Source: a virus
Direction: 5' to 3' (one strand)
Length of the DNA stretch: 10,965 nt
UHGV virus genome: UHGV-1359962
A program made the position numbers and the translations under genes. This document shows positions 1,379-10,965 of this stretch, piece after piece (position 1 is the stretch's first letter; each line of letters starts with the position of its first letter). Under the pieces are notes generated by a model, which made no database searches, was not told the DNA's origin, and saw only the letters and a list, made by a program, of their open reading frames with translations.

Positions 1379-2167
1379 TCAATATCTCTTGTTCGGATTC
1401 ACTGAGTACTTTTTAAGCTTTGAAGCTACCCGACCAGCGTTACTATTAGCATTGGTGACGTTGGTTTTTTCAGCTTCTGTTAAGTCTGAATAGTCCAGCT
1501 TCCAAGCCTTATTACATTTAATCTGAGCATCGAGAATATCATTTCTGATAGCTGGAGCGTAACCGGATACATCGCTAATATCCATTAGCTCTTTGCACGA
1601 TAGCATAGGCGCGTTATTGCGTTCAGTGGTCACGTTACCTGCATTCTTCTTACTGGTCACACCACCGTCATTAGTGGTAGCCGTTTTGCCAGTGGCAGCC
1701 GAAATATCAGTTTGCCCCACAATAGCTTTAAAGTTAATTTCCTGAAAAGTTAGCTGGATTCTCAGGCCGTTTGAAATACCAACATCTTTTGAGGCTTTAA
1801 AGCTCGTAATAATGGAATCATCAATTTTAATCCCATCTTTACAGATGACAGAAATAATCTGCTTCTGGTCACGCCAGTTTTCAAGGGTTTCGATGAAGTT
1901 TTCTACTAATTGACCCTGACGAGTTAATAATAAGCTTCCTTCATAGCCAACTACAACGACACCACTAATAGTGATTGTTCTGGGTGCTCTTTGCACATTA
2001 TCTGTGACAGTTTGCCCTGATTGCATGTTCTGTGTAGTCACCTGCATAGGACTATCAAATTCCATGTTTTCAGTTGCTGATAAGGTTAAGAAGGCATCTA
2101 CATTATCTCTTAAGTGGAAATAGATGCCATCTTTGCCACTGTAACGAATCTGATTAGAGTAAATCAT
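1379..2167 (-). CDS. Hypothetical protein, 262 aa, immediately downstream of the tape-measure-like gene; tail-associated role is possible only by position
   Basis: ATG at 2167-2165 preceded by AAGGAG (complement of 2174-2179) with 6-nt spacing. The ORF-track start at 2188 is a TTG and is less likely. Stop TGA at 1381-1379. No recognisable domain; the sequence has a hydrophobic beta-like stretch ([18 protein letters not shown]) and a Thr/Asn/Gly-rich segment. Confidence 0.6.
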
Positions 2168-2242
2168 TAAATTCTCCTTTGATTTCAAAGGCTTAGTGTA
2201 TTTTAATCATTTTTAACCAAGCCTTTGATATATAAGTATTTT

Positions 2243-2289
2243 CTCTGTTAAGCGTGAGCTACGTAAATTCTATTTTTCAGTGCGGGTAT
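2243..2289. promoter_or_regulatory. Conserved ~45-bp element (CTCTGTTAAGCGTGAGCTACGTAAA ... GGGTAT), copy upstream of the 262-aa gene
   Basis: 25-nt block identical to 4519-4543, followed by a similar ATTTTT..GGGTAT tail. Lies in the 135-bp gap between the TMP-like gene stop (2324) and the 262-aa gene start (2167). Confidence 0.45.
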
Positions 2290-2323
2290 TAACTTTGCTT
2301 TATTCACGTAGAACACCGTTAAA

Positions 2324-4504
2324 TCAATCATCTTCTGGGAATGATGAACTTAATAACGTAGCTTCTGCATATTGGTCGTAGATATTACTGCTAAAGGTCA
2401 TAAAGCTGGTTTCATCTGGTTTAATGGCAACTTCACCACCAAGTGAAACTTTCACAGGCTCCTGAATACGCTTACTTAAAGCAGAGATTTCATCCCTCAG
2501 ACCCTGAATATCTGCACTCGTTAATGATGCATCTTGTTTCATGGTAATTAATTCTGGATGATTGAATCTTGCAATATTCATTGTGGCATTGTTAAACAAT
2601 TCACCCATTGAACTAAAAATCCTGCCCCATCCTTCGTTAATCATATTCGGTTTATTAGGGTCACCAGAATACACAGGATTAAAGTCACTACCCACACCTA
2701 CCCCAGATGGATGCATATTAGCGTTTTTGACTACTTCCTGATTCATAAAATCCAGTGCTTTCTTCAATGCATATAAACCAAGAGTGACACCTCTGATTTG
2801 TGGAATCATTGAAGCTAATGCTAACGCTGTTTCATAACCGTCATCAGCATAACCAATTGCAAGAGCACTACCTACACCACCAGCTACACCTTTCAGTTTT
2901 CCACCACCTTTACCAGTAGCTACCTGACCAGCCACCTGATTAGCTCTTGTACCTAACGTTGTGATTGCTCTTGTCAGGTTCATAACCCCTGTAGTAGCAC
3001 TGAATAGTGTCTTTGCAGATAACGCTATAGCAAGACCTTTGACAAAATTGATAAAACCATCACCGACTTCATCAAGTAGTTTTCGTTTAGTGTCATCAAG
3101 GCTGTAATAGAACTTCTTAGTCTGTAGAATCCAGCCTTCAAGGTGATTGTTAAAGATACGGATGTCATCTACACCAGCTTTAAGCATGTCGATAAGTCCA
3201 CCGATAGCATCACCAGCGATAGAAGAACTCATACCCATTTCACTAAGCAGGTTACTCAGGCTGGATAAGAAGCCGTTTAGCTCATCCTGTGAACCTGAGA
3301 AGATTTTCACCATCGTATCATCCCAGTTGTTAGCCAGTTTCCCTAAAGCTGTCTGAGTGCTCTTAGCGACTTCAGCCCAGCCACCCGCTTTATCAATCAT
3401 CAAGCCCATCTGTTTAGCGACTTTAGGGAGAGTATCACTACTTAAAATCTTCCCGTTTTTCATGGCTGCATCAAGCTCTGTAGCAGTCATACCCAGTGCT
3501 TCAGCGAATAGCTTAAATGCACCAGCCATACGGTCACCTAACTGTCCACGAAGCTCTTCAGCCTGAATCTTGCCCTTAGAAGCCATCTGCTCAAAAGCTT
3601 TCAAAATGCCGTTTAGCTCGTCGTTAGAAAGCCCCATTAAGCGACTCATAGCCGTTGCATTACCAAATAGTTCCTGTGTCTGTTCCTGTGACATAGAACC
3701 CTGAGCACCTGCTGCAAACTTAGCGTAGCTTGACAGCCCTTCAGAGATATTAAGACCTGTCTTGTCTGCTAAATTTCGAATAAATACCTCAGCCTCAGAT
3801 GCTTTATCACCAAGTACAAACTTAGCGGCTCTCTGTGCGGAATCTCGTTTAAGACCTGCATTCATAATGGCCTTGTAAGCGTTAAGAGCACCCATCACAG
3901 AGTAAAATGCACCAGATAATTTAATTGCATTGCTTGCAAGATTATTAAATGCGTCGCTTGTATTATTAATGCTGGTGGTCTTTGTCTGTGACCTGAGTTT
4001 ATTCAACGTTTCACGAAGAGATTGATTTAATTTTGCAAGTTCAGCGTTAAACTTTTCACTTCCAATATTACCAGCCTTGCCGCTTAAACTGTAATATTGT
4101 GCTTTAAACATTTTAGCCATCAGCGGATTAATATCACCAAGCTTAGACATATTCACACTATGCGCTGCTGTGATTGCTCTGTTTCCGCTAATTCGTGGCT
4201 GTCTTGGTTGTTTTGGAGGATTGATAACGTCATTAACCTGACTTGTGAAACGGAAAACTCTAGTGTTTTTTGCTCTAGCTTCCAGACGGTCAAAGGTCTT
4301 ATTAAACTTCCTTTCAAGTTGCCCTAAAGAACTTGTCAGATTGCTGTCAAGTTGCTTGGTATCGACCTTAAACGCTCTATTCAAATTACGTTCAATTCTT
4401 TGTGCTGACTGCAAAGCTGCCTTTTCAACTCTTTGCAAGCCCTTAATAACGTTCTCGCTGAAGCCTAGCTCAACGATAAAACTATCAACTTTAAATTGTG
4501 CCAT
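2324..4504 (-). CDS. Phage tail tape-measure-like protein, 726 aa
   Basis: Long ORF, ATG at 4504-4502, stop TGA at 2326-2324. Predicted helical N-terminal half. The segment MSRLMGLSNDELNGILKAFEQMASKGKIQAEELRGQLGDRMAGAFKLFAEALGMTATELDAAMKNGKILSSDTLPKVAKQM resembles the conserved tape-measure domain as I recall it, and Gly-rich hydrophobic stretches (GQVATGKGGGKLKGVAGGVGSALAIGYADDG) are typical of TMPs. The SD-like GAGGTG lies 11 nt upstream of the ATG, so the exact start is uncertain. Confidence 0.75.
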   Translation of the reverse strand: MAQFKVDSFIVELGFSENVIKGLQRVEKAALQSAQRIERNLNRAFKVDTKQLDSNLTSSLGQLERKFNKTFDRLEARAKNTRVFRFTSQVNDVINPPKQPRQPRISGNRAITAAHSVNMSKLGDINPLMAKMFKAQYYSLSGKAGNIGSEKFNAELAKLNQSLRETLNKLRSQTKTTSINNTSDAFNNLASNAIKLSGAFYSVMGALNAYKAIMNAGLKRDSAQRAAKFVLGDKASEAEVFIRNLADKTGLNISEGLSSYAKFAAGAQGSMSQEQTQELFGNATAMSRLMGLSNDELNGILKAFEQMASKGKIQAEELRGQLGDRMAGAFKLFAEALGMTATELDAAMKNGKILSSDTLPKVAKQMGLMIDKAGGWAEVAKSTQTALGKLANNWDDTMVKIFSGSQDELNGFLSSLSNLLSEMGMSSSIAGDAIGGLIDMLKAGVDDIRIFNNHLEGWILQTKKFYYSLDDTKRKLLDEVGDGFINFVKGLAIALSAKTLFSATTGVMNLTRAITTLGTRANQVAGQVATGKGGGKLKGVAGGVGSALAIGYADDGYETALALASMIPQIRGVTLGLYALKKALDFMNQEVVKNANMHPSGVGVGSDFNPVYSGDPNKPNMINEGWGRIFSSMGELFNNATMNIARFNHPELITMKQDASLTSADIQGLRDEISALSKRIQEPVKVSLGGEVAIKPDETSFMTFSSNIYDQYAEATLLSSSFPEDD

Positions 4505-4518
4505 TGTTCATATTTCAC

Positions 4519-4563
4519 CTCTGTTAAGCGTGAGCTACGTAAAAAATAATTTTTGGTGGGTAT
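4519..4563. promoter_or_regulatory. Conserved ~45-bp element, copy abutting the RBS of the TMP-like gene
   Basis: CTCTGTTAAGCGTGAGCTACGTAAA at 4519-4543 is identical to 2243-2267, and the tail ATTTTTGGTGGGTAT matches ATTTTTCAGTGCGGGTAT. It ends 14 nt from the TMP start codon. Confidence 0.45.
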
Positions 4564-4595
4564 ATCTGTTCAGAAGATTTCACGTAGCACACATA

Positions 4596-4638
4596 CAAAA
4601 AAGGGAGAAACTACCGAATAATATCGATAATCTCTCCC
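4596..4638 (-). terminator. Candidate rho-independent terminator (minus strand) after the 71-aa gene
   Basis: On the minus strand GGGAGAGA (complement of 4638-4631) pairs with TTTCTCCC (complement of 4610-4603) around a 20-nt loop, followed by TTTTTTGT (complement of 4602-4595). The loop is long, so the call is tentative. Confidence 0.4.
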
Positions 4639-4686
4639 CGTGTTATAGATTCGATAGAACCTATCTCATACACCCAACCAATTCTT

Positions 4687-4902
4687 TTAATGCATGACAA
4701 GATAATGTAGTTCCGTTTCACCTATGATTTGAGCATCAGAAGGAATACGGTCGATACACCATTTTGGAATCTTGCGTGTTTTTGGTTTGCGTGAGGTGAT
4801 AATTTGATGTTTGGTTTTAATTCTTAAGACTGGCTTAGTTTGTAACTTTAAGTTTTCACAAACAGACTTAATAGTTTCATAGCGTTCTGTTAAATCAATC
4901 AT
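4687..4902 (-). CDS. Small basic hypothetical protein, 71 aa
   Basis: ATG at 4902-4900 preceded by GAGGTGA with short spacing. It starts 22 nt after the stop of the 234-aa gene (operon arrangement). Lys/Arg-rich middle (KTKHQIITSRKPKTRKIPKW). No domain recognised. Confidence 0.5.
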   Translation of the reverse strand: MIDLTERYETIKSVCENLKLQTKPVLRIKTKHQIITSRKPKTRKIPKWCIDRIPSDAQIIGETELHYLVMH

Positions 4903-4924
4903 TCATCACCTCACATATGCATAA

Positions 4925-5629
4925 TTAAACAGCCTTGCTAAATTCTCGTGGAACACTCAGAAAATCATTGAAGCTGATAATCTGTGCCAACTCTTGACGG
5001 TACTCCTTAGCCAGCGCTTGATGGTCACTAATCAGCTTAGCCAGTCTTGATTTCAGCAAATTAATCTCATTTTCTCTTGCTTTCATCAGTTTCTCTTTGG
5101 CAATTTCTTCAAGCTCAGCTTGTGATTTATCAGCAACAATTAGAGACAGTCGATGTGGTGCTCTGACAGCTCTTTCTGTACGAACAACTCTTTGACCTTC
5201 TGGTAAATCTGCAATCACTTTACCAATCTCTACAGGGTCATACCCCCAACCGTCACGGTCTAGTCGAGAGAAATAAGCATAAGAATTGGTTTGAAGCTCC
5301 ATCAAAATAGCCATTTCGTCAATTTCGTCTTCAAGTTTGGACTGAATTTTCTCGTAAACACTTCTCATTGCTTCTTGAGAGTCTCGAAGGTCTTTGAAAT
5401 ATTTGCGTTGCAGCTTCAGTTTCAAATCAAGCTCACATTCCTCATTCATCGAAAAATCAATTTCAACTCTTGGAATCTCGATTGGTTCTGGTGGAATATA
5501 TGGACCTTTATTTACTTCGTGCGATTCCCGCCAAGCTCTATCAAAAGATTCACGCAAAGTTAATTCGTGAATATCAAGTGCACTTGGTCTGTTCTCAACA
5601 ATCATTTCGTGTTCATTACGAATGGACAT
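4925..5629 (-). CDS. Acidic coiled-coil-like hypothetical protein, 234 aa
   Basis: ATG at 5629-5627 with AGAGGAA upstream; stop TAA at 4927-4925. Charged, heptad-like regions (EAMRSVYEKIQSKLEDEIDEMAILMEL; ELEEIAKEKLMKARENEINLLKSRLAKLISDHQALAKEYRQELAQI). No family recognised. Confidence 0.7.
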   Translation of the reverse strand: MSIRNEHEMIVENRPSALDIHELTLRESFDRAWRESHEVNKGPYIPPEPIEIPRVEIDFSMNEECELDLKLKLQRKYFKDLRDSQEAMRSVYEKIQSKLEDEIDEMAILMELQTNSYAYFSRLDRDGWGYDPVEIGKVIADLPEGQRVVRTERAVRAPHRLSLIVADKSQAELEEIAKEKLMKARENEINLLKSRLAKLISDHQALAKEYRQELAQIISFNDFLSVPREFSKAV

Positions 5630-5877
5630 TAATATTTTCCTCTTCTAAGATAATTTATGTTTCAGTTTTTAAAAAGCACACCTGACAGCCTACGAACTTA
5701 GAAGAGACTTAAAAGCGTTTGCCAAGTATGCTTTTTAAAAGCTGAAAAAAGCCCTAAACATAGGTGATTCGGATATTCATGGAATCATCCTCATCTGTGA
5801 AGGGCTTTGAAGGTTTGCTTTAACGTTAACGAAGTTTCAGGAAAAACTTTCTTTAAAAGCTCTGTTTAAAAACTCTT

Positions 5878-5907
5878 AAAGAAAACGCCCTAATCATGAG
5901 TTAGGGC
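5878..5907 (-). terminator. Rho-independent terminator (minus strand) downstream of the small-gene operon
   Basis: 7-bp stem GCCCTAA (5887-5893) / TTAGGGC (5901-5907) with a 7-nt loop. On the minus strand the hairpin is followed by GTTTTCTTT (complement of 5886-5878). Confidence 0.5.
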
Positions 5908-6208
5908 AAAGCTGTAAGGGTTCAATAATGAATGATTAAGCACTTTTTGATATATAGCCTATCTAGTGGGCTAAATAGGCCATGTAGCGAAAAGCATTGC
6001 ACCTTTCAGAATAACTATCCCTAGATGTAGATGGAATTGTTGAAAGAAATAAGAGAGAATTGCTCTCCCATACTTAAAATTATGGCATATTTAAGGTTAT
6101 TTGTCAACAGCTTTTTAACAGATTGGTAACATTAATTCTTATTTACCGTGTTACCTACCCAGCAACCAACAAATAAACCCAAAGCTGTCCAAGCAATTAT
6201 TAAGCCCA

Positions 6209-6532
6209 TTAATGCACCACCTTCGAATCCGTAACCAAAATATTGTCAGCGTACAAAATTGCTATAGCTGCCTTGAGATATCTTTCAGGGCTAACGCTGT
6301 ATCGGTTCGTTTGCTCGATAACCAATCTTTTCATGTTGCTGTCTTTAATTGGTAGCATCATTCGAGGCTCGTTAAACTCCACCAACTGAATAAAATCTTC
6401 AATTGTTTCTGAGTTATCAGCCATTAGCCTTAACAGCCTGTCAAAGTCAATGCTAACACCTACATCAGTGAAAGCCTGAATCATCATAGCGGTGTCGCTA
6501 TCAACGAAAATCTGTAATTCGTAATTGTTCAT
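6209..6532 (-). CDS. Hypothetical protein, 107 aa
   Basis: ATG at 6532-6530 (MNNYELQIF...) preceded by AAGGAG (complement of 6542-6547). The ORF-track start at 6565 is a TTG 11 codons upstream and less likely. Stop TAA at 6211-6209. Confidence 0.6.
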   Translation of the reverse strand: MNNYELQIFVDSDTAMMIQAFTDVGVSIDFDRLLRLMADNSETIEDFIQLVEFNEPRMMLPIKDSNMKRLVIEQTNRYSVSPERYLKAAIAILYADNILVTDSKVVH

Positions 6533-6550
6533 TTTTAAAATCTCCTTTTT

Positions 6551-6673
6551 ACCAGACCTCCTCAATCGCTCTGTAACGAGCTAAACAGTCTTTTTCAGGG
6601 GTAGCCTGTACAGTGGTATTACCCACCCTAAAATAAGGTAGTTTTTTGCGTTAGAATGCGATTGAGAGCGTCT
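6551..6673. repeat. Copy 1 of a ~100-120 bp paired element with conserved 19-nt and 21-nt end blocks
   Basis: TCAATCGCTCTGTAACGAG at 6562-6580 and AGAATGCGATTGAGAGCGTCT at 6653-6673 are identical to 8230-8248 and 8298-8318. The interior is similar but diverged. Lies in the gap between the HNH-like gene and the 107-aa gene. Confidence 0.6.
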
Positions 6674-6687
6674 GAGAAGCTGTTTTT

Positions 6688-6975
6688 CTAATTTCTCTTA
6701 AAGTCTCGGACTTGCATAAGATTTTTTGGTCTGGTATCGGCTCTGTTACCATTTCGATGGATAATTTGCTTGTTGGATTGATAGCCATGATAAAGGAACC
6801 AGACAACATATTTCACGTAGAAAGTATATCGGCCTATATTAAATGTTTTGTTGCCGTAGTCGTCGGTATTTATCGTGACTGACTCTCCATCAGACCAGTA
6901 CAGGGAATCACTGGATTCATCATAGATAAGGTGTTCTGTAAAATATCGTCTAACATCTTCATGCCAAGGTTTCAT
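6688..6975 (-). CDS. HNH_3-like (homing-endonuclease-type HNH) small protein, 95 aa
   Basis: ATG at 6975-6973 with strong GGAGG 4-5 nt upstream. Motifs LIYDESSDSLYWSDGESV and IHRNGNRADTRPKNL resemble the HNH_3-type nuclease signature (His ... GN ... N-L) as I recall it. Shorter than typical members. Its start overlaps the upstream gene stop (ATGA). Confidence 0.55.
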   Translation of the reverse strand: MKPWHEDVRRYFTEHLIYDESSDSLYWSDGESVTINTDDYGNKTFNIGRYTFYVKYVVWFLYHGYQSNKQIIHRNGNRADTRPKNLMQVRDFKRN

Positions 6976-7187
6976 AAAACCTCCTCACCCCAATAACCTA
7001 ATTCAATCTTGTGACGCTCAAACCATTCCGGTTTAACTGCTGTTTTCAGTACTTCATTTGGGCCAATGGCTTTAATGAAAATATCTTTTGAGTTATGGAT
7101 GTCACCGAATCCGTTTCCTTTAATCAGGAGGTCGGAGATGTGGCGAATCATTTTATCTGTGTGGTATTCAAAGGTAACGCATAGCAT
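6972..7187 (-). CDS. Hypothetical protein, 71 aa
   Basis: ATG at 7187-7185 with GGAGG 4 nt upstream. Start overlaps the stop of the upstream 92-aa gene by 1 nt (TAATG) and its stop overlaps the HNH-like gene start (ATGA), indicating translational coupling. Confidence 0.5.
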   Translation of the reverse strand: MLCVTFEYHTDKMIRHISDLLIKGNGFGDIHNSKDIFIKAIGPNEVLKTAVKPEWFERHKIELGYWGEEVL

Positions 7188-7465
7188 TAAACCTCCATCG
7201 CTAACTTGTGAATCTTAAGACTCAATAGACGGGCAATATCAATTTTAAAGCCGTTAAGTCCCTTCAAAGTATCTAAAGCGTCCTGAGTAATTCGGATGTG
7301 TTTACGACCTTTAGAGACTGGATATCTAAGTAAATCCGACTCAGTAACCTCTTTAGCAATTGCAAGCTGCATAACAGTCTGATGAGGCAAGTTAGTAGCT
7401 CGTTTAATTCTGGCAAGCTCGTTAAAAGCTTCCTCTGAAATACGGGTCAAAGTGTGTTTCTTCAT
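7187..7465 (-). CDS. Hypothetical protein, 92 aa
   Basis: ATG at 7465-7463 with AGAGGAA upstream, directly adjacent to the stop of the 185-aa gene. No domain recognised with confidence. Confidence 0.55.
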   Translation of the reverse strand: MKKHTLTRISEEAFNELARIKRATNLPHQTVMQLAIAKEVTESDLLRYPVSKGRKHIRITQDALDTLKGLNGFKIDIARLLSLKIHKLAMEV

Positions 7466-8023
7466 TTAAAATTCCTCTGTAACTAAATACGGGTCAAACT
7501 CGAAATCTGGTTGCTCGTTTTCCATTGGCTCAATATTTCCAACGGCAATATGATGCTCAACAACACCAATTAACTTTGCGCACATTACAGCAAGCAAAGC
7601 GCAATATTTATCGCTTGGTAATTCATGGCTAAGTCTGGTTGCTTGACGCTGAAGATAATTTGTCACGGTAGCTGAGTTAATTTCATCAAGATTCTTTAGA
7701 ATATAAAATAGCTTTCTGTTGTATTTTGGGTGACCTTCGCTTCTGCAAAATCCGATAATTACATCTTCAAACTTGCGTGGTAATTGCTCGTAAGAATCAA
7801 CGTTAGCCAAATAATTTTTGATGCTGTTCTGGGTGCTCTTTCTGGTTGACATATAACGACTCCTCGGTGTAATTGCCCGAATTACTTCGTCAATGCCTTT
7901 GCGTTCTGCTCTGGTGAACTTGGGTACTTCGTGGCTGGTGGGGTTGTTTGTGTAAGCGTAGGAGTTGTGCTTGTTGCGTTCTCTTGATGCCTGAAGCATC
8001 GCTCTAAATTCTCTGTCGTTCAT
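7466..8023 (-). CDS. Hypothetical protein, 185 aa, first gene of the minus-strand small-gene operon
   Basis: ATG at 8023-8021 downstream of a candidate sigma70-type promoter. The SD-like AAGGA is 11 nt upstream; an out-of-frame ATG at 8027-8025 is better spaced, so the start is somewhat uncertain. Confidence 0.6.
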   Translation of the reverse strand: MNDREFRAMLQASRERNKHNSYAYTNNPTSHEVPKFTRAERKGIDEVIRAITPRSRYMSTRKSTQNSIKNYLANVDSYEQLPRKFEDVIIGFCRSEGHPKYNRKLFYILKNLDEINSATVTNYLQRQATRLSHELPSDKYCALLAVMCAKLIGVVEHHIAVGNIEPMENEQPDFEFDPYLVTEEF

Positions 8024-8071: not shown

Positions 8072-8100
8072 ATACTAGCATTTTCAAAGACTAATGTCAA
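8072..8100 (-). promoter_or_regulatory. Candidate sigma70-type promoter for the minus-strand operon
   Basis: On the minus strand: -35 TTGACA (complement of 8100-8095), 17-nt spacer, -10 TAGTAT (complement of 8077-8072). Confidence 0.5.
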
Positions 8101-8107
8101 GCATTTT

Positions 8108-8137
8108 TTAACATTTCATTAACATCTGTGGTATAAT
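8108..8137 (+). promoter_or_regulatory. Candidate plus-strand promoter with extended -10, divergent from the operon promoter
   Basis: -35-like TTAACA (8108-8113), 18-nt spacer, TG at 8129-8130 and -10 TATAAT at 8132-8137 (TGgTATAAT). Confidence 0.55.
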
Positions 8138-8219
8138 GGTTTTATGGGGAGAGTAAAATATGAGGCGTGGCTATGAGGTATCAACTATCGAGAATGGCCG
8201 CATGGTTATTGCATTGCAC

Positions 8220-8318
8220 ACAGACCTCTTCAATCGCTCTGTAACGAGTTAAATGGCCTCTTCAGGTCAACTCATAAGGTCAGGTACTTTTTGTGTCAGA
8301 ATGCGATTGAGAGCGTCT
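8220..8318. repeat. Copy 2 of the paired element, within the leader of the membrane-protein gene
   Basis: Blocks at 8230-8248 and 8298-8318 are identical to copy 1. Located between the plus-strand promoter and the ATG at 8333. Confidence 0.6.
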
Positions 8319-8332
8319 TACAAGGAAATTTA

Positions 8333-8521
8333 ATGGTAAATCTCCCTCCTGAACTGGGGTCACCTGATGTATGGGCTGGTGGAGGTGTTGGACTTATTGC
8401 GGGTCTGCTGCTTCGCTATTTCATCGTCAGAGTGTTTATCGTGTTCAGATTGTTTGGTCGTGAATGGTCGTTTGACCTCAAGGACAGGACCAGAACAGAC
8501 AACCACACAGAACCCCGCTAA
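8333..8521 (+). CDS. Small membrane protein, 62 aa, one predicted transmembrane helix
   Basis: ATG at 8333 with AAGGA 6 nt upstream; stop TAA at 8519-8521. Translation MVNLPPELGSPDVWAGGGVGLIAGLLLRYFIVRVFIVFRLFGREWSFDLKDRTRTDNHTEPR has one hydrophobic helix followed by a charged C-terminus. Preferred over the alternative frames at 8291 and 8367 because of the RBS and protein-like composition. Confidence 0.5.
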   Translation: MVNLPPELGSPDVWAGGGVGLIAGLLLRYFIVRVFIVFRLFGREWSFDLKDRTRTDNHTEPR

Positions 8522-8534
8522 ACTCCCTTCAAAA

Positions 8535-8575
8535 CCCCTATACCATCTCGTACAGGGGTATCTTTAGCATTTTGT
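8535..8575 (+). terminator. Candidate terminator after the membrane-protein gene
   Basis: Stem CCCCTATAC (8535-8543) / GTACAGGGG (8550-8558) with one mismatch, then a T-rich tail TATCTTTAGCATTTTGTG. Confidence 0.35.
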
Positions 8576-8635
8576 GCTATCTATTAAAAAACGGCTTGAC
8601 AGAACCGGAAAGCTGTATCTATCAAGTATTCACCT

Positions 8636-8816
8636 CTCTGACAGTAATTTCTAAAAGTTCTTATTTTTCAATGAGTTGTAATTAGCCAATATAAAGGACT
8701 GACAAGACCCTTCACAATTAACTCTGTAACCTTAACAGTAATTTCTAAAAATGCTTATTTTTCAATAAGTTGTAATCACCCAATATATAAGACTGTCCAG
8801 TACCTTCACAGATAAC
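8636..8816. repeat. Two tandem direct repeat units of about 86 and 95 bp
   Basis: Unit 1 (8636-8721) and unit 2 (8722-8816) align along their length. Shared blocks include CAGTAATTTCTAAAA, CTTATTTTTCAAT, AGTTGTAAT and GACTG.C.AG..CCTTCACA..TAAC. Confidence 0.7.
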
Positions 8817-9603
8817 TTCAAGCCCTCTTAACCGCCCCACTAATCGGGAGAAGAGCGATAACCCCAGAGAGGGAAGCTCCCTTCTTAATCGGCCTCCTAA
8901 CCAGTCTTTACAAACCTTGTTCAAGGTAATCACAATAGTTTTTCTTCCCTCGGTTTCCTGTGTTCCTCGGTTTATCTATTGAGACTTGAAAGACCTCTGT
9001 AAGTGCTCTCTTAGCGAGAGAAAAATCATTCATAGTGACCCCAAGCGAAGTGCCCCTCTAAAAAGATTTTTTAGCTATTTTGCTTAAAACCATATCAAAC
9101 GATACATTTTATTGATTTAGGTCAAAGACAAAAACATTGACAAAATGGTATGATTGTTCACATGACCTTACTTAACAGATTCTTAAGAGCTTTGAAACGA
9201 CCTACTTAACAAGGTCACTACCTCTGGTCTTATCGTTCCCTTCTTTCTAGGTAGTCATCTGTTAAGAACTTTTCAGTTTTATTCTTAAGATAATTGTTAA
9301 GATGATACTCTCCCTTCGGGTTATATCGTATCTCTTCCCCCGTTAAACACTCCTTCCTAACAACTTCATAGTTATCTGTCAAGTACCTTTGAAGATTCTA
9401 TCAAGACCTCTAAATCTGACCTGATATAGATGCTGTGAAGGCATGTTCTCTAGGTCTGTGTAGCTTACTTAGTGGGAAGAGAGGGTGATACATGAGAAAG
9501 AACCCCTCCTACTTAAAAGAATTATTTGACATTATTGTGATGGTTATTTAAGATGCAACTGTACAGACACCTTCATCGGTTTCTCTACACCTTCCTATGG
9601 CTT

Positions 9604-9664
9604 GGTCTGGCTAGGTAGGGTGGGGTCTGGTTAGGTAAGGTGGGGTATGGTTAAGTGTGGGTGG
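9604..9664. repeat. Three tandem ~20-bp iterons
   Basis: GGTCTGGCTAGGTAGGGTGG (9604-9623), GGTCTGGTTAGGTAAGGTGG (9624-9643), GGTATGGTTAAGTGTGGGTGG (9644-9664). Confidence 0.75.
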
Positions 9665-9696
9665 ATTGTCGTAGCCACGTTAAAAATCGACTTATA

Positions 9697-9720
9697 GGGA
9701 CTCTTTCGGGAGTCCTTTTT
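9697..9720 (+). terminator. Rho-independent-type terminator hairpin with UUCG loop
   Basis: GGACTCT (9698-9704) pairs with GGAGTCC (9709-9715) around the loop TTCG (9705-9708), followed by TTTTT (9716-9720). Confidence 0.55.
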
Positions 9721-10791
9721 AGTTTGTATAAAATCTGTACAGTAACTTTTCAGATTCTGAAAATTTTTATAAAAAAATAATCAGGCCTCTTCTAAGTCTC
9801 TTCAACCAAATCTTTCAAAAATATCTACACTCAATTGATGGCTGTTAAGTACCCCAGATTCACGATATAGCACCCCCTTTGCAAAAGCAGTTAAAATATC
9901 TATAACCAACTATTGACTTTCTTCATAGCATCTGTTAAGTCCACCTCAAGAAACCTTCATCACACTTCAAAGCATCTATCAAGAAGGTTTAACCTATCAA
10001 TAGCTGTAACATTTTGTAGTTCTGTGAAGTCCTATCCAGTTTTCTCTGTAACAGACACAAACTTCTGCGACCTTATGTATCAATGACTTAGAATACATGC
10101 TCTCAAGGTTCTGTATAGTCTCTTATCTTCAAATACACAAAACCCTTATAAATCAGTACTGATACGTATACAGTTCGTTTTTAACATAATGGCTGTTTTA
10201 CGCACTAATCGTGTTCTACATGAAATCTGTATAGATATTAAGGTGTCTGTAAGTGATTTTTTAAGAAGGGACTACGAAGATTTGACAAGGTAACTATGAG
10301 GTTGATTCCTAGAACAACCGAATCAACTATAACCATCACTTTTCAATATTCACGCAGGATATCGTTAAGTTTCTTGATAGTTACACCATGTGACCAACTG
10401 CATAGATAGCGTTATATACTCCTGTATATATCACTTTTCTAGGAGTCTGGAGAGGGACGACTAACACGATACAGTTTACCCTGAAAAGAGACTTCACAGA
10501 TTCTTTATATATTTCAATAAGTTATGCTAAAAAGAGACTATACCGATACTGCATAGAATCTGTGTAAAACTGCTTAGATACTTGGGAAAATGCCTTTAAA
10601 TTGCATAGTCATAGGGGTTGGAACAAGCCCAACTTCACCTGATATTGTCCTGTAATTAACAGGTTTCTTAGAAAACCGAATAGACTTCATTCAAGGGTCA
10701 TTGTATTGTAGCTATTCGGCATTGTAGCATTAGCCATAACGTTTATAAGTTCATCTTTAAATGATAATCAATTGCATGGGAGTTTATCACC

Positions 10792-10965
10792 ATGAGACAC
10801 GTAATTACATACCTTCGGTACAGTTCAGCCATACAAGGCGCTGAAGGTGCTGATTCAACCAGACGACAAAATGAGCTATTCAAACAGTGGTTAAGGAAGA
10901 ATAGCGATGCTCAGGTAGTTGCGTCTTTCAGTGATGAAGGGTTGAGTGGTTACAAAGGTAAGCAC
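10792..10965 (+). CDS. Serine recombinase N-terminal catalytic segment (58 codons); 3' end runs off the window end; probably the same gene as 1-1347
   Basis: ATG at 10792 preceded by GGGAG (10779-10783). Translation MRHVITYLRYSSAIQGAEGADSTRRQNELFKQWLRKNSDAQVVASFSDEGLSGYKGKH carries the serine-recombinase N-terminal signature (Y-x-R-x-SS-x-x-Q with the presumed catalytic Ser, later D-x-G-x-SG). The frame ends exactly on a codon boundary at 10965. Confidence 0.7.
   Translation, partial: MRHVITYLRYSSAIQGAEGADSTRRQNELFKQWLRKNSDAQVVASFSDEGLSGYKGKH

Follow-up and report, generated by a model that had tools for sequence, protein, structure and literature searches.

We analysed a 10,965-bp stretch of viral DNA (UHGV virus genome UHGV-1359962; hereafter the window) and focus on a plus-strand cassette at positions 8108-8575, in which a gene for a 62-amino-acid (aa) protein with a single predicted helix lies between a conserved promoter with a structured leader RNA and a 3' hairpin. 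The window is a complete element in circularly permuted form. A large serine recombinase gene spans its ends (10792-10965 joined to 1-1347): the N-terminal resolvase domain begins at 10792, the frame resumes at base 1 and ends at 1347, and the joined protein carries Resolvase, Recombinase and zinc-ribbon domains. The other convincing genes are all read from the minus strand, within 1379-8023, and encode a Dit-like baseplate protein, a 726-aa tape measure, small unknown proteins, an HNH endonuclease and a 185-aa protein. The features on which the analysis of the cassette rests are the following.

8072..8100, minus strand: predicted leftward promoter P_L, with TTGACA, a spacer of 17 nucleotides (nt) and TGcTAGTAT, scoring 10/12 with the TG and conserved in relatives.
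8108..8137, plus strand: predicted rightward promoter P_R, with -35 TTAACA (8108-8113), 18-nt spacer and extended -10 TGgTATAAT (TATAAT at 8132-8137).
8144..8153, plus strand: predicted transcript 5' end, placed from the -10, with the purine run GGGGAGAG (8146-8153).
8160..8252, plus strand: 30-codon upstream open reading frame (ORF) of the initial annotation, rejected here as a gene.
8167..8201, plus strand: leader hairpin 1, with an 8-bp stem GUGGCUAU/AUGGCCGC, from conservation of pairing.
8209..8220, plus strand: invariant 12-mer TTGCATTGCACA, identical in 23/23 distinct leaders from E. coli, Citrobacter and Kluyvera.
8222..8318, plus strand: palindromic stem-loop of 97 nt ("copy 2"), from the repeats D4 and D6 and from folding.
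8322-8326, plus strand: Shine-Dalgarno AAGGA, 6 nt before the ATG, read from the sequence.
8333-8521, plus strand: gene for the 62-aa single-helix membrane protein MVNLPPELGSPDVWAGGGVGLIAGLLLRYFIVRVFIVFRLFGREWSFDLKDRTRTDNHTEPR, from homologues, nonsynonymous-to-synonymous comparison (pN/pS), alignment and AlphaFold.
8342..8349, plus strand: pyrimidine run CUCCCUCC (codons 4-6), candidate partner of the transcript 5' end in minimum-free-energy folds.
8534..8559, plus strand: 3' hairpin, a stable fold 13 nt past the stop codon with a weak U-rich tail.
8565-8579, plus strand: second small 3' hairpin, after that tail.
6553..6674, minus strand: stem-loop "copy 1", between cistrons of the leftward operon, ending just before the Shine-Dalgarno of the 107-aa gene (ATG at 6532).

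Sequence comparison indicates that the 62-aa ORF is a real gene under protein-level purifying selection, because it is intact across three genera, has a median pN/pS of 0.31 (mean pS 0.44), has in-frame indels (3 and 12 nt) and retains conserved motifs. The ORF proposed by the initial annotation is thereby borne out as a conserved gene, with its ribosome-binding site 6 nt upstream. Of 21 loci searched in relatives belonging to E. coli, Citrobacter and Kluyvera, 20 yielded it intact, and the remaining locus (L007) holds an intact 58-aa version that lay outside the search pattern. DNA alignments display changes at third positions, and the conserved residues of the protein are G20, R28, R33 and the tail RLFGREWSFDLKD. 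Homologues fall into 76 clusters, all named hypothetical, and truncated versions are rare. The Prokaryotic Genome Annotation Pipeline (PGAP) annotates the gene in some genomes and omits it in many, which, together with the lack of a known domain, might suggest a chance ORF in non-functional intergenic sequence beside replication-origin-like repeats. Against intact copies in three genera, the low pN/pS, in-frame indels, conserved motifs and the rarity of truncation, this explanation is extremely improbable. A 76-aa version starting with TTG at 8291, preferred by some gene callers, was rejected because the codons for its additional residues belong to the inserted palindrome, which is missing from relatives.

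The family appears to be confined to these islands. The 62-aa protein had no match in Pfam, NCBIfam, PHROGs, PADLOC or PDB, and tblastn gave none across 50,697 phage records. An exhaustive profile search of 1.84 billion protein representatives returned 13 matches only (39-113 aa), 9 of which were already among the results of the first homologue search, and the 13 look like the family's own members; no homologue outside the island family, remote relatives included, was found. AlphaFold predicted one helix at residues 11-53, with block-mean predicted local distance difference test (pLDDT) values of 88-93 for residues 21-40. The Kyte-Doolittle maximum over 19 residues is 2.2, the hydrophobic segment covers approximately residues 18-41, and the charged tail is GREWSFDLKDRTRTDNHTEPR. 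The earlier description of one hydrophobic helix with a charged tail therefore holds, but the helix is atypical: the invariant R28 and R33 lie inside the hydrophobic stretch, which makes the transmembrane energetics borderline, with a simple Hessa-scale sum of +1.5 kcal/mol that is slightly unfavourable.

The predicted promoter P_R has the hexamers, the 16-18-nt spacing and the conservation expected of a sigma-70 promoter. It scores 11/12 with an extended -10 and had been described as the best promoter match in the window; it is indeed near consensus and conserved in 23 leaders, but it shares the top score with a minus-strand site at 6107..6079. Because the whole-window promoter scan gave 33 sites against 28.3 expected, with no enrichment over shuffles, the hexamer match alone is weak evidence for P_R. 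The -10 with its TG (TGGTATAAT) and the TAACA repeats are kept in 23/23 distinct homologous leaders, including those of Citrobacter and Kluyvera. Two direct TTAACAT repeats (8108-8114 and 8119-8125), with an 11-bp period corresponding to one helical turn, overlap the -35 and the spacer and may constitute an operator. P_R and P_L stand back-to-back in the layout of a genetic switch, and the operon downstream of P_L contains the 185-aa, 92-aa, 71-aa, HNH and 107-aa genes.

The leader was confirmed at approximately the 190 nt first proposed, being 189 nt if transcription begins near the predicted start at 8144. Leaders of the diverged islands measure approximately 75-80 nt and consist of a 5' purine run, an 8-bp hairpin, the invariant TTGCATTGCACA and the Shine-Dalgarno; the window's leader corresponds to this ancestral form plus two insertions, one of 15 nt in the loop of hairpin 1 and the other the 97-nt palindrome. 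The purine run (GGGGAGAG or GAGAGAGGGA) is present near the 5' end in all homologues. Hairpin 1 is kept in all 23 distinct leaders, with 95% of cells paired, whereas slid controls reach 24-54%. Single-sided substitutions preserve pairing at four of its pairs (G.U, G-C, A-U) and one two-sided change converts A-U to G-C, but the shuffle control, at 36/500, was not decisive. Its loop is GAGA in many relatives and is enlarged by the 15-nt insertion in the window. The 12-mer lies directly 5' of the Shine-Dalgarno in the ancestral leader, and neither a second copy nor a complement of it was found in the window. A search of all Rfam families at E <= 1 returned no family for the leader.

The loop of hairpin 1 seems to be a hot spot for small insertions. 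A mini-hairpin GGGGTTGGAACAAGCCCAAC at 10614-10636, which adjoins the presumed attP, recurs as a near-identical copy (TAC for AAC) in this loop in the loci L002, L011, L013 and L023.

The start of the ORF also carries a sign of control at the RNA level. Synonymous differences amount to 0.06-0.18 in codons 1-16 versus 0.32-0.46 elsewhere, while the nonsynonymous fraction is similar throughout; since only synonymous differences are depleted, the comparison argues for nucleotide-level constraint at the ORF start. In minimum-free-energy folds, the 5' purine run pairs with 8342-8349 or its equivalent in most of the 17 leaders folded, and codons 4-6 lie within the ribosome footprint. For nearly all homologues, folding predicts a mostly unpaired Shine-Dalgarno (probability 0.64-0.96).

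Downstream of the gene, relatives always hold a hairpin 10-20 nt past the stop codon, drawn from three unrelated sequence types, none with a proper U tract. The initial annotation had called this element a terminator. The stable hairpin and its conserved position stand, but its identification as a canonical intrinsic terminator is not supported: its tail UAUCUUUAGCAUUUUG has 4 U in the first 8 nt, fails the U-tract rule and was not called by the terminator scan, and the tails of the other types are poorer. We describe it as a conserved structure and not as a demonstrated intrinsic terminator.

Together, the promoter, the leader, the gene for the small single-helix protein and the 3' hairpin support the view of the cassette as an autonomous unit. 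Such a stand-alone unit, with its own near-consensus sigma-70 promoter and 3' hairpin and with its gene alone on one arm of the switch, would also suit a protective gene of the moron type, in which an inner-membrane protein made constitutively by the quiescent island blocks DNA entry, or some other membrane step, of competing or helper phages (superinfection exclusion or defence) and has no part in lysis. The predicted accessibility of the Shine-Dalgarno and start codon agrees with this explanation, and the conserved charged tail, like the invariant arginines, points to a specific protein partner. We consider this a serious rival, albeit an unlikely one, since the promoter has a constitutive appearance. 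The cassette resembles the exclusion morons of the HK97 gp15 type in being an autonomous promoter-gene-hairpin unit of a mobile element that encodes a small inner-membrane protein; however, there is no homology, and a structured conserved leader is atypical of morons. The protein matches no PADLOC defence model and no PHROGs family, and the conserved structured leader and the depletion of synonymous change at the ORF start fit regulated synthesis better.

Two further reading frames in the leader were rejected. The upstream ORF at 8160-8252 is present in the window as sequence, and its 3' end overlaps a repeat block at 8221-8253, as first reported. As a gene it does not withstand comparison: its ATG is found in only 11 of 23 distinct leaders and is replaced by ATA or AAA in the other 12, indels of 14 and 17 nt break the frame, and its span varies from 5 to approximately 30 codons, with five codons in Kluyvera. 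Its apparent conservation is the nucleotide conservation of the RNA hairpin. Another mini-ORF, at 8253-8333, ends in a stop that overlaps the 62-aa gene's ATG (TAATG); its start is lost in many copies, in which AAATGG has become AAACGG or AAGCGG. The upstream mini-ORF and the label "terminator" should be dropped as features of the locus.

The repeat block proved to be real and to form part of a larger element that had gone unrecognised, namely the inserted palindromic stem-loop that we call copy 2. Its outer stem comprises 16 bp (AGACCUCUUCAAUCGC/GCGAUUGAGAGCGUCU, with one 1x1 mismatch), and its inner stem is irregular. The insertion separates CACACAG from the Shine-Dalgarno, with GGAAA next on its 3' side, and has ACAG/ACAAG at its flanks. 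The site is empty, as a clean gap, in loci L010, L011, L013 and L276 and in all diverged islands. Among E. coli islands copy 2 is 95-100% identical, versus 81-95% for the ORF region, and one of its stem pairs runs through the series U-A, U.G and C-G across L027, L115 and L002. The element is confined to the island family and occurs in 400/5426 E. coli genomes; its restriction to this family and its absence from phages led us to reject a general miniature inverted-repeat transposable element (MITE) or a helper-phage element. In one lineage, L012 (E. coli O111 strains, e.g. NC_013364.1), IS1203 interrupts the island within the 5' arm of the leader palindrome, leaving the 62-aa ORF intact but cut off from its promoter.

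Copy 1, in the leftward operon, folds with z-scores of -3.5 and -4.1. It is collinear, in minus-strand sense, with structured elements that, in every diverged island, directly precede the Shine-Dalgarno of the 107-aa gene; most of these elements fold with z-scores of -3 to -4.8, and their arm sequences differ. Because a structured element occupies the same place in all diverged islands, the positional comparison indicates that copy 1 is ancestral and copy 2 a later paralogue. No RNAalifold consensus was obtained for the ancestral stem-loop across lineages, the underlying MAFFT alignment not being structure-aware, so its support consists of the per-sequence z-scores. Metagenome and genome scans used arm patterns of 15-16 bases, too short to be specific, and almost all of the matches were due to chance; the only real ones were L115, L122 and L175 (E. 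albertii). An attempt to identify the functional strand from G.U-compatible substitutions was abandoned: on visual inspection the changes in the arms seemed strand-specific, but the whole-element change in folding free energy (ddG) displayed no preference (6:3 and 5:7).

Both copies stop a few bases short of a ribosome-binding site, in opposite orientation relative to the gene. The long, nearly perfect stem is plausibly an RNase III substrate or a protein-binding module. Long irregular hairpins of 100-125 nt directly 5' of a ribosome-binding site recall the early RNase III sites of T7, the lambda N-leader site and repeats of the enterobacterial repetitive intergenic consensus (ERIC) or MITE kind, as do occurrence in either orientation to the gene, presence/absence polymorphism and short flanking repeats (here ACAG/ACAAG). 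In contrast to ERIC or MITE elements, the palindrome occurs in 1-2 copies and in the island family only, with no ERIC similarity and no Rfam family; RNase III cleavage is putative.

Since copies 1 and 2 have the same orientation as DNA, the divergent transcripts are complementary to each other over 33 + 31 nt, in regions that lie within stable intramolecular stems with unrelated apical loops. This complementarity bears on two alternative explanations. In the first, the cassette would be a type I toxin-antitoxin-like system, whose membrane toxin is encoded by a long-leader mRNA that is inert until processed and is neutralised by an antisense RNA, thereby stabilising the island. Consistent with this are the small size, hydrophobicity and charged C-terminus of the protein, its single helix in the AlphaFold model, and the long conserved leader, which may fold back onto the start region, as the leaders of tisB, zorO and dinQ do. 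In lineages with copy 2, moreover, the leader is complementary over those segments to the leftward operon mRNA at copy 1. The likeness to TisB/IstR-1, ZorO/OrzO, DinQ/AgrB and Hok/Sok thus comprises a small hydrophobic single helix, a long structured leader and possible pairing of the 5' end; the differences are that no antitoxin RNA was found in the island, that 62 aa is longer than most such toxins, and that the Shine-Dalgarno is predicted to be open. Within the island, copy 1 is the sole stretch with complementarity or similarity to the transcript, and many islands keep the gene without copy 2. No conserved antisense promoter was seen, the sole minus-strand promoter-like site of the leader lying in a window-specific insertion, and a chromosomally integrated island has little need for addiction. 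We regard this explanation as quite doubtful.

The second explanation takes RNA as the main product: the leader would be a regulatory RNA that pairs with the leftward mRNA upstream of the 107-aa gene or titrates an RNA-binding protein, and the ORF would be secondary. In its favour, the leader is conserved above the coding sequence, both at the 12-mer and across copy 2, and the direct orientation of the two copies makes the divergent transcripts complementary there. However, the ORF is clearly selected as a protein, the complementary regions are locked in stable stems whose apical loops are unrelated, the 12-mer has no target in the window, no Rfam family was found, and many islands do without copy 2. 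An RNA-centred function is accordingly improbable.

To interpret the protein, we considered the element in which it resides. In the baseplate (Dit-like) and tape-measure genes, segments of DNA share 88-96% identity with Felixounavirus (Felix-O1-like) phages, which infect E. coli and Salmonella. Related integrated islands occupy the tonB-yciI interval; they match in 549/5426 complete E. coli genomes (~10%), the cassette region being found in 414/5426, and the host genera of the family are E. coli, Citrobacter and Kluyvera. Vibrio PLE satellites likewise have a large serine recombinase and encode a tape measure and baseplate hub of their own (PMC12987554). Satellites of the PLE kind combine an integrase with virion genes that derive from the helper and fall short of a full set, and have an excised circular form; all three features are present here. 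Given the wrapped recombinase gene, the Felixounavirus-like tail genes and the tonB-yciI integration, the element looks like an excised PLE-like satellite of a lytic myovirus, with putative helper dependence and packaging. Our literature search found no paper describing this E. coli island family, and it is apparently undescribed.

PLE offers a precedent for an overlooked membrane protein in such a setting. LidI, a previously unannotated 66-aa transmembrane protein of PLE, is linked to the satellite's acceleration of host lysis; it is 66 aa long in both PLE1 and PLE2, and its collapse of lysis inhibition has been shown experimentally (PMC7182436). The 62-aa protein is likened to LidI in kind and not by sequence: both are small transmembrane proteins missed by annotation, in a satellite of a lytic myovirus that has a large serine recombinase and its own tail genes. 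The gene position and promoter context differ, and a similar role here is proposed by analogy. Small holins and pinholins provide a further parallel, in that they share one hydrophobic helix, a glycine-rich motif (GGGxGxxxG here), a highly charged C-terminal tail and residence in a phage-related element. A transmembrane domain followed by a charged, mostly basic tail, as expected of a holin, is found in the 62-aa protein, the former being borderline through R28 and R33. Unlike the holins, it has two arginines within the helix, no dual-start motif and no family match, and the island has no spanin or lysis cassette; no convincing endolysin was found in the island either, PHROG "endolysin" labels being only secondary matches of the Dit-like baseplate protein. 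The role of toxin, holin or abortive-infection effector raised by the initial annotation is compatible with the shape of the protein and with the signs of control at the RNA level, and remains a reasonable guess.

On the PLE analogy, we tentatively favour the interpretation of the cassette as the rightward unit of a PLE-like satellite switch, encoding an RNA-gated membrane effector that alters lysis timing or permeabilises the membrane, and hold it at somewhat less than even confidence. The 62-aa protein would insert in the inner membrane so that the acidic N-terminus faces outwards, while the arginine-rich end and charged tail face inwards. There it would act on the envelope of the helper-infected cell, changing the timing of lysis or permeabilising the membrane in the manner of LidI or small holins. 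Its synthesis would be gated at the RNA level, with the purine-rich transcript 5' end pairing with codons 4-6, and cleavage or remodelling of the leader would lift this start-region block; for RNase III, the inserted long stem would offer a natural substrate.

Several observations weigh against this interpretation. The near-consensus P_R suggests helper-independent expression, an odd arrangement for a lytic effector if no repressor acts at the TTAACAT repeats. The two invariant arginines and the borderline transmembrane energetics are unfavourable to it, and database searches gave no sequence similarity to holin or toxin families or to LidI-type proteins, although no LidI sequence was compared directly. 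The Shine-Dalgarno and start codon are predicted to be largely open, so that strong translational repression is not evident. The window's own fold is an exception to the proposed pairing, its purine-run partner sitting deeper in the ORF. The duplex between the 5' end and codons 4-6 has a predicted energy of -11 to -14 kcal/mol, which ranks only within the top 6-12% when compared with random 18-mers, and both partners are of low complexity; taken singly, the pairing is weakly supported.

A more elaborate version of the lysis-effector reading would integrate the whole window. The element would be a complete excised satellite of Felix-O1-type phages, resident in about one in ten E. coli genomes, in which an RNA-wired divergent switch, acting through the complementary transcripts (33 + 31 nt) or a shared RNase III or protein-binding module, and through pairing of the 5' end with the start region, times a LidI-like effector that sets the lysis of the helper-infected cell. 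In this full form we regard it as a long shot. The cassette itself is an orphan small membrane-protein unit of a mobile element, and its interest derives mainly from the satellite setting. Small membrane proteins are routinely missed by annotation, and this family is a conserved orphan and a testable effector; in PLE, the one well-studied comparable satellite, a protein of similar kind controls lysis timing. If the 62-aa protein alters lysis or membrane integrity, it would offer a handle on satellite interference with a phage group in wide use for the biocontrol of Salmonella and E. coli.

We also observed a number of minor features elsewhere in the window. A 25-aa hydrophobic peptide, MGLIIAWTALGLFVGCWVGNTVNKN, is encoded at 6132-6209 on the minus strand, its start overlapping the stop of the 107-aa gene (TAATG). 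Islands of E. coli, Citrobacter and Kluyvera have close variants at the corresponding position, and the peptide is unlisted among the genes of the examined islands; on these comparisons it is a second conserved tiny membrane peptide. Farther along the minus strand, the near-consensus promoter at 6107..6079 (TTGACA, 17 nt, TGgCATAAT) is followed by a terminator-like hairpin at 6071..6049, with another at 5908..5886, and the interval 6049-6107 may act as an attenuator, or give rise to a very short RNA, in front of the 234-aa gene. Also upstream of that gene, in the long intergenic region, is an inverted repeat at 5660-5747 with 28-nt arms, 86% complementary. The only Rfam hit, to a plant microRNA, fell on this unrelated inverted repeat and was rejected as spurious.

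The motif CTCTGTWA occurs in 10 copies, all on the plus strand, against 1.0 expected (0/200 shuffles reach 10).

2243, 4519, 6569, 6741, 7475, 8053, 8237, 8722, 8995 and 10044, plus strand: CTCTGTWA motif, from shuffle comparison.

One copy lies at the P_L start region and one in each palindrome arm. A related motif, TCTGTNAAG, has 13 copies against 0.6 expected, 8 of them within 8595-10500. CTCTGTWA and TCTGTNAAG probably represent the binding motif of an island regulator or a replication initiator. A repeat of approximately 75 nt (CTCTGTTAAGCGTGAGCTACGTAAA...TTCACGTAG) at 2243-2316 and 4519-4592 closely precedes, in minus-strand sense, both the baseplate gene and the tape-measure gene and may provide them with a common late promoter or activator site; a late promoter borrowed from the helper was rejected, as the repeat had no match in phage genomes.

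Beyond the cassette, 8580-10790 comprises 2.2 kb without a credible ORF. It contains a 94-nt tandem repeat (8641-8817), 2.5 copies of a 20-nt repeat (9604-9653), many TCTGTNAAG sites and A+T-rich tracts, and on this composition it looks like a replication origin. Other islands carry cargo at this position, namely a Dam methylase, a small resolvase or invertase, or an AP2-HNH protein. Within the region, a plus-strand promoter-like site at 9526-9554 (TTGACA, 17 nt, TAAGAT) is followed approximately 140 nt later by the strongest plus-strand intrinsic-terminator-like hairpin, at 9696-9717, and a T run. The segment 9526-9725 on the plus strand encloses the 20-nt repeats, is 78-97% conserved in several islands, and is a candidate non-coding RNA gene of approximately 165 nt.

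An inverted repeat CCGAATAG...CTATTCGG at 10674-10719 is probably attP, because homology to integrated islands stops there. Its half-site motif AACCGAAT(C/A)(A/G)ACT is found again at 10316-10328 and within the loop of hairpin 1 in L002, L009, L018 and L027, where the window retains the remnant ATCAACTAT.

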